A stretch of 63,323 bases of DNA, counting the filler, from an uncultured Acidimicrobiia bacterium (GTDB lineage: Bacteria > Actinomycetota > Acidimicrobiia > Spongiisociales > JAOTWH01): NCBI GenBank assembly GCA_964347285.1. It is 3 parts of 3 records of this genome, joined end to end, with 100 filler letters (N's around TTAATTAATTAA, not from the genome) between each part and the next. Parts side by side here need not be neighbours in the genome. Positions count along the whole stretch, not along the records: positions 1 to 22,712 come from CAYFYE010000036.1; positions 22,813 to 45,510 come from CAYFYE010000037.1; 1 more part is not named here. One strand, given 5' to 3'. Position numbers: made by a program. Positions 22,712-25,700 of this stretch are shown in pieces; the stretch's first letter is position 1, and each line of letters opens with the position of its first letter.

Positions 22712-25700
22712 ANNNNNNNNNNNNNNNNNNNNNNNNNNNNNNNNNNNNNNNNNNNNTTAATTAATTAANNNNNNNNNNNNNNNNNNNNNNNNNNNNNNNN
22801 NNNNNNNNNNNNTCCGAGGTCGAGTGGGCCGGCGCCTACGAAGGCCGTTGGGGGGTCCGCATGGCTCAGCAGGTGCGCGACTACACGACTGTCTGGTTCG
22901 ACGTTGGAGACCGAACGCTGGGATACGAGGCGCACGTAATACCATCGCCGCTGCGGGGTTGTCAGGAGGTGTATCGCCGGTGCCTCTTCCGCAATGCCTC
23001 GGGCTGGCGGGCACACTTTGCCCTCGACGCAGCAGGCGGCTGCTCCTGCGGGGCAGGATCCCGCTCGAATGCCTGTCGCTCTTCGAGCTCGACGCCATCC
23101 TCGACGCTCTGTACGACATGGTGGAGGTGGCCTTGCGCAGCCTCGTTCGGGCCGGTTTCGGGCGCGAAAAAAACGGCTGAAATTCCACATGTCGACAAGC
23201 GTTGTGCACAACCTCTTGTGGATTTGTGTGGACATGTGGACAGGCTGCCGATTTGGAGGTCAAGAGGCCCCAGCAAACAGCAAATAACGAGGCAGATCCC
23301 CGCCAGAACGCGAAAGCGCGTCGTATCGAGATCCTTGACGTACGGGGGCGGGTCTCAATACTGTCGGCCGCACCAGGCCCAAGGTGCCGCACGCGCCGCA
23401 GCCTCGTTCGGGGAAGTGCGGGGAACGGCGTAGAGGTTCCTTGGGCCTGGGCACGCTAGCGGGCCCACCGCCGCTTTCGCAAGTGGTCTTCAGTCTCCCA
23501 GCCCGAACATCACCTCGCGCAGCCGCACCCCCTCGGTACCGAAACCATCGAGATCGATGCGCAGCGAGCCGAGGCGCAGACCCCGCATCTCCTCTCCTCG
23601 GTTGGTAGTGACCAACAGCCCCCCGCCCTCGAAGACCAAGGCTCCCAGGCCTTGGCAACGGCCGCTCCCGTCGTGGAGCCCGACGAGCATCCGGTCCAGC
23701 CGACCGAGGTCGAGACCCGCCGGTAAGGTCGGCGCAAACACGGTGGGGCGAACGCGCCACCGTTGGAGAGGAGGGGCGAACGCCTCGGCAAATCGTTCGG
23801 CCCGAAGAGCCCGGCGCTCTTCGACCGACACGGGGACGACGGCCGGATCGACGCCTGCGATCTCGACCCGAACCGTGAAGAATCGACGCAGCATCCCGAC
23901 CACCGGCTCCATCTCACCGCCCCGCTGCAACGCGACGATCGCCTCGGGTCGGCACAGCTCGGTCTTGTAGTACTTCAACGTCTGGCCGATGACTCCCGAA
24001 ACAGCCCCGGTGGTATCGACGACGACCAGATCGGCTCTCGATCGGGCCATATCGACGAGGGAAGCGGTGGCCACGACCTGAGGCAGCACGAGGCCCTCCG
24101 GAGAGACAGAGCCGACGAAGCGGAGCTGGTCCGCCTGCCCCACCCGGTCGAGATCGTCTTCCGACTCCACCCACTTCAACCCCACGCAGGCGGGGGGGCC
24201 CACCGTGGTCTGTCCGACGTCGGCGTCCACGTAAGCGGCCCGGCGGCCCGACCGGGCCGCTTGGCGTAACAGGCGGAGGGCCAGGGAAGTCTTCCCGGTG
24301 TCGGGGGCGCCGAGCAACATCACGACGCCGCGAACACCCACCAGATCTTCGACGACGGCGTCGGAAACGGCTTCGAGGCTCATGCGCGCATCTTAGGAAG
24401 GGCGAGACGGCTCCCTCACCGGCCCCGGTAAGCTCGACCGATGCCTCACCCCATCGCTTTCTTGTCGGACTTCGGGCTCACCGACGAGTTCGTCGGCGTG
24501 GTGCACGCCGTGCTCGCCCGCATCTCTCCGGAGTCGCGGGTCCTGGACATCACCCACCAGGTGCCCCGGGGGGACGTGCGGGCCGGGGCCCTGACTCTGG
24601 TGCGGGCCATCCAGTACCTCCCCGGAGGGGTGGTCCTGGCCGTGGTCGATCCCGGTGTAGGCACCGGGCGGCGGGCCATCGCCGCCTCCACCGAGTGGGG
24701 CTACCTGGTGGGCCCCGACAACGGCCTTCTCGCTCCGGCCACCCAGATGGTCGGCGGAGCCGATCGCATCGTTTCCATCGAGAACACCGAGTACCGACTG
24801 CCGGGTGCCGCCGCCACTTTCGACGGTCGCGACGTGTTCGCCCCGGCGGCTGCCTTGCTAGCCGCCGGCGAGATCGAGTTGGGCGACCTCGGGCCCACCA
24901 TTTCCACTGAGAGTGCCATGCCGCTGATACTGCCGCTGGTCGACCACACCGATGAAGGTCTGCGCGGAGAGGTACTGTGGGTGGATACCTACGGTAACTG
25001 TCAGACGAACATCACCCCCGAAGACATGGCAACCGCCGGCCTCTCCCCCGGGAACCCGGTCGAGCTGTCGATCGGGGCGACCACCTACTCCTTGGAGTGG
25101 GTGACTGCCTACGGAGACGTCGAGCCCGGCGAAGGGCTCGTCCACGTCGACTCGTACGGCCAGGTGGCAGTGGCGGTACGGGAAGGGCGGGCCGACGAGG
25201 ATTTCAACCTGACCGAAGGACGGGCGGTCGTGCTCAAGTCCCCACAGTGAAGACCCATATGGCAAAAGCGCCGAAGATGACCACCAACAGGACCACGACG
25301 ACTATGGCGGTGACGGGGCGCACGGGGCGAGGGTAGCCAGCGCGTGAACAGGCCCACTGTCGAGTTCGTCACCCGCGACGACTGCCCACTGTGCGATGAG
25401 GCTCGGTCGGTACTGGGCCGATGGGCTCGCCGCCTCGGCATCGAGGTGGTCGAGCGCAACATCGACCGAGATGCGGAATTGGCCGAGGCCCTCGGCGATT
25501 CCGTGCCGGTGGTCCGAACCCCGGTCGGCTCAGTGATTGCCGCAGGCCGCTGGTCGCAGCCCAAGCTGGCGGCCGCGCTGTTCCTTGTGCGGATAAGAGG
25601 GCACTAGGCGTCGACCGTTCTCGGCGGGCGATCACAGTCACCCGGTAGAATCCGCCTCCCGCGGATGTAGTTCAGTGGTAGAACACAAGCTTCCCAAGCT

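Follow-up and report, generated by a model that had tools for sequence, protein, structure and literature searches.

The window analysed here, a stretch of 63,323 nucleotides from an uncultured bacterium of the order Spongiisociales (class Acidimicrobiia, phylum Actinomycetota), comprises three contigs with spacers of N between them. The locus of interest lies on the second of these (contig C37; window positions 22813–45510) and contains two divergent genes. The gene on the minus strand (23490..24383) encodes a Clp1-family P-loop kinase of 297 amino acids (PF16575 CLP1_P, E 1.6e-28), and the gene on the plus strand (24441..25250) encodes a protein of 269 amino acids from the DUF62, or SAM hydroxide adenosyltransferase, family (PF01887, E 1e-45; PF20257, E 2.7e-18). 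Profile searches and reading of the open reading frames bear out the preliminary description in that both genes are real: their frames are intact, and their start codons are 57 bp apart. This spacer (24384..24440), delimited from the sequence, is a putative promoter region common to both genes. In relatives, the distance between the two genes varies from about 40 to 844 bp.

Further along the plus strand is a small glutaredoxin-like open reading frame with a CxxC motif (25344..25607), assigned by motif and position. It is the next gene of the ancestral block described below, and the proteins encoded at its place in relatives cluster as PF05768. An intron-free tRNA-Gly(CCC) gene, predicted by ARAGORN, lies at 25661..25733. 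A gene for the 30S ribosomal protein bS22 (31818..31907, plus strand; 29 amino acids; NF047430, 35.4 bits against a cut-off of 34) is located about 7.4 kb from Clp1, a gene that it directly follows in other classes. On the opposite side, convergent with Clp1, a probable YbjN-family gene appears to be split over two frames (22824..23180, plus strand). This assignment is positional: YbjN occupies the same place in relatives, and a family scan of both frames gave no match. The rRNA genes just before the locus are unlinked to Clp1, because the contigs are separated by N spacers. A search of a plasmid collection returned no match.

The Clp1 protein consists of a kinase domain and a Clp1/Grc3-like C-terminal domain, without an N-terminal domain. 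A structural model was obtained from a 91-sequence alignment (pLDDT 94.7). Foldseek returned human CLP1 (8hmy) as its best match (TMq 0.73), and the top ranks were occupied by human and Caenorhabditis elegans Clp1, yeast Clp1, and Grc3/Nol9. VIA-align, run against 48,161 chains, aligned 271 residues with C. elegans Clp1 (4ohv; Z 25.1, rmsd 3.3, model residues 2–278). Grc3 reached Z 23.4, Clp1/Grc3 matches ranged from Z 25.1 to 17.9, the next family scored 12.3, and full-length matches were restricted to Clp1/Grc3. By PF16575, Foldseek and VIA-align, the protein has the CLP1_P domain as well as the overall fold of the Clp1/Nol9/Grc3 family. It also carries a clade-specific VFxPxLP motif, and the profile match to an archaeal homolog runs through its C-terminal domain. 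Thermus scotoductus Ts-Clp1 and Pyrococcus Clp1, as characterised in PMC6777427 and PMC10598085, are likewise CLP1_P kinases with a short N-terminus, Walker A and B motifs, and a lid. PMC6777427 presents such proteins as scattered, and the bacterial ones as lacking a conserved C-terminal domain. In contrast, this order's Clp1 belongs to the core genes of the lineage, occupies a fixed locus, and has a C-terminal domain.

Both Walker motifs reported in the preliminary description were recovered (GAPDTGKT, with K31, for the pattern GxxxxGK[T/S], and DADVGQ, with D55 and Q58, for [D/E]hhQ), along with P95, a clasp that reads DTTGA and includes A127, and the lid arginines R190 and R194. When the kinase and C-terminal domains are superposed on human and C. 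elegans Clp1 and on Nol9/Grc3, the lysine, the aspartate, the proline, and the two lid arginines align. All five match human CLP1, where R190 and R194 correspond to R293 and R297, and they are conserved across loci of the order (K31 and D55 in 39/39, P95 and R190 in 37/39, R194 in 38/39). Apart from the missing N-terminal domain, the protein differs from eukaryotic Clp1, Nol9, and Grc3 in having Ala in place of the clasp Trp and Val at the site of human R288, and no TSEN, Pcf11, or Las1 partner was found.

Other positions are less well kept. Arg occurs at the R288 site in only 2 of 39 order loci, whereas Arg or Lys is found there in 104 of 116 distant proteins. The Walker B Gly and Gln are retained in 21/39 and 24/39 order loci, compared with 116/117 distant proteins; the Gln is present in 112 of the 119 closest homologs, and the protein described here has it as Q58. 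At the clasp, the pattern [T/S/L]xGW is replaced by DTTGA, and the Trp site is T, A, V, or S in 36 of 39 order loci but L, F, or M in 31/33 proteins from loci with the ancestral block and in 102/117 distant proteins. Among 80 loci resembling those of family f62, the site is E in 40 and M in 36. The small clasp residue is peculiar to the order. The Trp itself was sought in 119 close and 149 distant prokaryotic homologs and found in none, and it therefore marks eukaryotic as opposed to prokaryotic members. The mean net charge of Clp1 also differs, being −6 in the order and +4 in distant proteins.

According to PMC5900568, RNA specificity depends on the clasp, and the bridging phosphate is contacted by the Walker B Gln; the Grc3 mutant W364A is almost inactive, Q286A is four- to fivefold less active, and the first lid Arg of Grc3 is dispensable. 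In PMC6239180, R288A/R293L was used only within triple mutants. Phosphorylation of RNA in vitro is reported for the Thermus and Pyrococcus members (PMC6777427 and PMC10598085). Since no prokaryotic homolog examined has the Trp, yet these two are active on RNA, loss of the Trp alone is compatible with RNA kinase activity. Nevertheless, the catalytic residues have been kept in the order and the RNA-gripping residues have been eroded, which makes the label ‘RNA 5'-kinase’ less safe than the Walker motifs would suggest.

The neighbouring protein possesses both the N- and C-terminal domains of the DUF62 family (PF01887 and PF20257). It shares this two-domain architecture, D70, R77, and the PDNG and DxxGN motifs with the SAM hydroxide adenosyltransferases PH0463 and MJ1651 and with (R,S)-SAM hydrolases. 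Its match to NF058624 (206.6 bits) falls under the equivalog cut-off of 350. In PMC4859513 and PMC10491745, a water-activating Asp-Arg-His triad (D68-R75-H127) defines the family. Here the Asp and Arg are kept as D70 and R77, but the His is replaced by D128 (TFDGRD rather than TFHGRD); the alignment has His at this position in PH0463, MJ1651, and two thermophile proteins. The site is D, E, or A in most Acidimicrobiia loci, His in family f4 and two others, and His or Gln in the families outside the class that have the ancestral block. Consequently, the earlier designation ‘SAM hydrolase’ is sound at the level of domains and fails at the catalytic triad.

Within the order, Clp1 was detected above the cut-off in 130 of 151 genomes, and in 101 of 110 near-complete ones. 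Genera g28, g31, g36, and g54 lack it, in some cases in single-contig genomes. A separate sample of the class, with 12 candidates scored per genome, gave 60/62 members of the order and 0/189 other members of the class. Clp1 is under purifying selection (dN/dS 0.020–0.125 over 10 pairs, against 0.074–0.223 for DUF62). In a quick tree of 94 rows (no family contributing more than two loci, with 38 distant proteins added and two unpublished genomes excluded), the 19 order rows formed one clade (SH-aLRT 100), and most families paired. The view that Clp1 is a vertically kept core gene of the order is therefore upheld by its frequency, its absence elsewhere in the class, its monophyly, and its low dN/dS.

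The gene is not, however, specific to the order. A sample of the phylum contained Clp1 in 140 of 401 genomes: 7/7 from the order, 0/24 from the rest of the class, and 133/370 from outside the class. The five core families outside the class are f49 (25/26), f54 (20/21), f56 (9/10), f58 (17/21), and f62 (22/22), while f55, f59, and f60 scored zero in this sample. Judging from ‘same phylum’ kinship and the order of sampling, these five core families probably represent separate classes. The figure of about 2% given previously for other Actinomycetota thus hides core lineages, although it may still hold as a species-level average, since the sample was drawn evenly over groups without weighting by species. 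In the quick tree, the order and ten families with the ancestral block formed a single clade (SH-aLRT 100) apart from other actinobacterial copies, and on this basis an acquisition of Clp1 specific to the order was rejected. Clp1 predates the order and extends beyond it. The labels of more distant homologs include Armatimonadota, NC10, Nitrospinota, Anaerolineae, and Theionarchaea.

These distributions contradict the published picture, as the preliminary description had argued. It had correctly quoted PMC6777427 for 14 of 1,543 bacterial species and for a distribution that is ‘not lineage specific’. The supplement of PMC6777427 records Clp1 in 0/244 Actinobacteria, and the survey was of 1,543 complete genomes, so the 2019 result is a sampling effect. 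In the literature library searched, no paper dealt with Clp1 in Acidimicrobiia, PMC6777427 was the only one to connect the Clp1 kinase with Actinobacteria and RNA repair, and titles and the beginnings of abstracts revealed none on a lineage-core bacterial Clp1. Some tallies include unpublished genomes: G004 and G016 in the order tallies (Clp1, DUF62, pairing, RtcB, and bS22); G349, G365, G393, G425, G431, G460, G486, G510, G558, G570, G597, G666, and G709 in the phylum tallies; and G349, G365, G393, G425, and G431 in the adenosine-kinase counts for other classes given below. Unpublished loci L004 and L056 entered some locus comparisons, including those of spacer range, VFxPxLP, bS22 adjacency, and the DUF62 triad site. 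The conclusions do not depend on the unpublished genomes alone.

The arrangement of the two genes is more variable than the ‘fixed head-to-head’ pairing (11 of 11 loci) first proposed. Among the 130 order genomes with Clp1, the pair is tightly divergent in 67, divergent at 350–2000 bp in nine, and in tandem in ten (family f12). In the remainder, the genes are 2–40 kb apart on the same contig (25 genomes) or on different contigs (13), or DUF62 has no listed place (six); in families f2 (0/19) and f11 (0/8) they are never adjacent. DUF62 is also present in 142 of 151 order genomes, including Clp1-less genera. Across the 401 phylum genomes, 121 have both genes, 19 Clp1 only (one of them a single-contig genome), 117 DUF62 only, and 144 neither. 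Given this frequent separation, obligate coupling of Clp1 and DUF62 was rejected.

Loci outside the class suggest where the pairing comes from. Forty were chosen, 24 from families with the ancestral block and 16 from other families. DUF62 lies downstream of and co-directional with Clp1 in 20 of the 24 but nearby in none of the 16. The order of genes in the block is a PF15698 phosphatase, divided from HTH_17, Clp1, bS22, (an alpha/beta hydrolase), DUF62, an NAD epimerase, and an acyltransferase. In 20 of the 24 block-family loci, the start of bS22 is no more than about 100 bp from Clp1, and in all 80 loci related to f62 it lies within 250 bp, with DUF62 downstream in 60 of the 75 that are long enough. 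In the order, bS22 is present in 145 of 151 genomes, mostly at a distance from Clp1. The block has the same gene order as a conserved actinobacterial HTH, bS22, epimerase, and acyltransferase block, and differs from it in the presence of two more genes: Clp1 sits after HTH and ahead of bS22, and DUF62 after bS22 and ahead of the epimerase. The mycobacterial counterpart of that block is presumably Rv0500A-Rv0502.

Clp1-less loci preserve parts of the same arrangement. Five Acidimicrobiia outside the order have an mshA-like GT4 gene, YbjN, proC, (a phosphatase and HTH), and DUF62, with Rex next in four of them, and genome G372 has HTH, bS22, DUF62, and the epimerase. A search of 13 Clp1-less loci for remnants of Clp1 found none. 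The Clp1–DUF62 pairing is not obligatory and probably survives from an ancestral gene block. The simplest reading is that Clp1 was ancestral and was cleanly lost repeatedly, and that an inversion in the order placed Clp1 and DUF62 back to back. DUF62 would then be a neighbour by descent, its adjacency in the order having probably followed from the inversion and the removal of intervening genes. Its place beside Clp1 is synteny kept by descent and may have a metabolic meaning.

Taken together, these observations make an anciently inherited actinobacterial member of the Clp1/Nol9 family, acting as an ATP-dependent RNA 5'-OH kinase in RNA decay or processing, the best explanation for the protein, with a probability of about 0.47. 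Its fold, the intact set of residues for phosphotransfer, its vertical inheritance, the purifying selection on it, and its constant position within an old housekeeping block are observed; its activity is predicted. K31 and the lid arginines would hold ATP, D55 would activate the ribose 5'-OH, and the product would be an RNA end with a 5'-monophosphate. The likeliest use would be to mark RNAs, whether 5'-OH fragments or intermediates of processing, for RNase E or RNase J, much as Grc3/Nol9 does for exonucleases. The structural match, the retention of K31, D55, P95, R190, and R194, the presence of RNase E and RNase J in the source genome, and the adjacency of bS22 support this reading. Against it stand the erosion of RNA contacts, the lack of any nuclease, ligase, or other RNA gene except bS22 among the conserved neighbours (with bS22 itself distant in most order genomes), the lack of a substrate class that stands out, and the adenosine-kinase pattern described below, which an RNA kinase leaves unexplained. 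Two substrate classes were considered and rejected. A role in tRNA splicing finds no basis in the introns predicted by ARAGORN in this genome, which are long and scattered and duplicate intron-less tRNAs, as expected of noise. Fragmented 23S rRNA is likewise discounted, the gene being of ordinary length in four of five genomes, Clp1-positive and Clp1-negative alike.

RNA repair, in which Clp1 would heal ends for sealing by RtcB or a ligase, is very improbable. The source genome has RtcB, a 2H phosphoesterase, and, next to RtcB on contig C15, an archease-like open reading frame; of the RtcB–archease pair named earlier, RtcB was found and the archease was recognised by eye only. RtcB lies on a different contig from Clp1, occurs in 76 of 151 order genomes against 130 for Clp1, is absent from the Clp1-keeping groups f8 (0/7) and g15 (0/9), and is present in the Clp1-less genus g36. 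RtcB does not follow Clp1 across order genomes, and the partnership hinted at earlier was rejected. RtcB joins 5'-OH ends (PMC4787814), and the action of a 5'-kinase would therefore obstruct it. A PF09414 ligase above the cut-off was found neither in the source genome (90% complete) nor in five genomes of other classes. Because no 5'-3' RNA ligase was found and RtcB is not tied to Clp1, the likeliest use of the predicted RNA kinase is not repair. It is also improbable, if less so, that the protein is a scaffold or depends on a partner, having little activity by itself and being activated by, or serving, a binder of the C-terminal domain, possibly in ribosome maturation, by analogy with Las1 for Grc3 and Pcf11 for Clp1. 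The kept C-terminal domain, its match to Clp1/Grc3, and the clade-specific VFxPxLP motif fit such a role, as do the weakness of Grc3 alone (PMC5900568), the proposal that prokaryotic Clp1 acts on pre-rRNA (PMC10598085), and the adjacency of bS22. However, the bS22 link is broken in the order, all the catalytic residues remain, in contrast to those of the inactive yeast Clp1, and the 82 neighbour clusters scanned include no candidate nuclease.

The strongest rival to the RNA-kinase reading, though somewhat unlikely, is that in this old clade a Clp1 RNA kinase encoded with DUF62 became an adenosine or nucleoside 5'-kinase that replaced the PfkB-family adenosine kinase by non-orthologous displacement. 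It would apply its ribose 5'-OH chemistry to salvage: adenosine set free by SAH hydrolase and by the DUF62 enzyme next to it would be converted to AMP. This was predicted from the DUF62 neighbour ahead of testing: DUF62 enzymes release adenosine, whose 5'-OH Clp1 chemistry phosphorylates, and Clp1 lineages were therefore checked for adenosine kinase. Two Clp1-less Acidimicrobiia have a kinase of the Sinorhizobium type (3ubo, E 1e-103), and a Clp1-less 8.5-Mb genome has one of the mycobacterial type (2pkf). The source genome, which carries SAH hydrolase, has neither type and no adenosine-kinase-like PfkB protein. A single Sinorhizobium-type query matched one of 151 order genomes. With a four-row profile of both bacterial types, counting full-length matches of at least 215 bits and excluding partial ones of at most 140, adenosine kinase was found in 0/17 genomes of the order and in 48/54 of the Clp1-less rest of the class. 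Of 88 genomes from other classes, one has both genes, 41 Clp1 only, ten the kinase only, and 36 neither, which places adenosine kinase in 1/42 Clp1-positive and 10/46 Clp1-negative genomes; family f61 is split into four kinase-only genomes and one Clp1-only genome, with zero overlap. G092 and G436 are the only two genomes with both. PfkB adenosine kinase and Clp1 are almost mutually exclusive, and this near-complementarity favours displacement, as do the co-directional downstream position of DUF62 in the block-family and f62-related loci (20/24 and 60/75) and the fact that the bridging-phosphate Gln is no longer invariant.

Several points weigh against such a displacement. The pattern amounts to about three independent contrasts, since kin are not independent; absence of adenosine kinase is common, given the 36 of 88 genomes with neither gene; G092 and G436 break the rule; and the 21 order genomes without Clp1 show no gain of the Sinorhizobium-type kinase. 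The source genome has other routes of salvage, namely APRT and three HPRTs; motifs alone also point to adenosine deaminases, PNP, MTAP, and a nucleoside hydrolase. The salvage role described in a preprint (bioRxiv 10.1101/2025.08.29.672840) concerns intact DUF62 members, and the DUF62 of the order, without the triad His, may make little adenosine. The order also keeps R194, whose Clp1 equivalent binds the RNA phosphate. To our knowledge, there is no Clp1-family nucleoside kinase. The PfkB kinases have a fold unrelated to that of Clp1 and would share a reaction with it only if the order Clp1 were an adenosine kinase; any link between the two would be functional.

Bacterial Clp1 has been viewed as rare and randomly distributed. 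Here several abundant lineages of uncultured actinobacteria inherit it vertically as a conserved, single-locus gene, which their relatives have lost cleanly and which retains a C-terminal domain said to be absent from bacteria. This pattern alters the debate between transfer from archaea and ancient loss. It also leaves Clp1 with two sharply different and cheaply testable candidate functions, as an RNA end kinase or an adenosine kinase, and the DUF62 without the triad His in Acidimicrobiia offers another enzyme variant that can be tested. Given its eroded RNA contacts and the lack of the usual adenosine kinase, the Clp1 of this order may serve in adenosine recycling and not in RNA phosphorylation alone. 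If so, the Clp1 family would have its first kinase of a small molecule, and purine and SAM salvage would have a new analogous enzyme.

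In most Acidimicrobiia, both within and beyond the order Spongiisociales, the His of the Asp-Arg-His triad that defines SAM hydroxide adenosyltransferases is replaced in DUF62 by Asp, Glu or Ala (loci L001-L033 and L240-L244). The site corresponds to codon 128 of the DUF62 gene in the window (24822-24824), which encodes Asp. Judged from sequence, the His-less DUF62 proteins of Acidimicrobiia could possibly be altered or inactive SAM-cleaving enzymes.

Two N spacers, at window 22713-22812 (with a TTAATTAATTAA core) and 45511-45610, are contig joins, and the genes on either side of them are not neighbours. 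Near Clp1, the gene in the YbjN position (22824-23180) seemingly occupies two frames with a break near 23040, a split that seems to be an assembly error or a pseudogene. Three overlapping frames at 26979-29126, which hold a membrane segment, an HD-GYP domain and Ig/cadherin-like repeats, look like a single frameshifted gene. The window also encodes ribosomal protein bS22 (31818-31907, + strand), which is 29 aa long and easy to overlook. Of the 151 genomes of the order, 145 have a bS22 match, and in 101 of these it scores above the cut-off.

The 2.6-Mb source genome carries three hypoxanthine phosphoribosyltransferases (contigs C57, C51 and C5; L210-L212) and three adenosine-deaminase-like ORFs, assigned by motif (C19, C23 and C51). 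In genome G026, the 23S rRNA gene (L245, 2220-2924) has a ~705-bp insertion containing a LAGLIDADG-like reading frame, as read by eye; this is probably a group I intron with a homing endonuclease.

Many 355-aa Clp1 homologs (P0283-P0390) are labelled Armatimonadota, where Clp1 may be a core gene as well. A separate Clp1 clade occurs in small-genome actinobacterial families (L085, L086, L095, L098 and L099), preceded by co-directional genes for an MrfA-like helicase, SLOG, a tRNA-editing domain, FeS-GGDEF, (radical SAM) and NUDIX. This clade is a better candidate for RNA repair.
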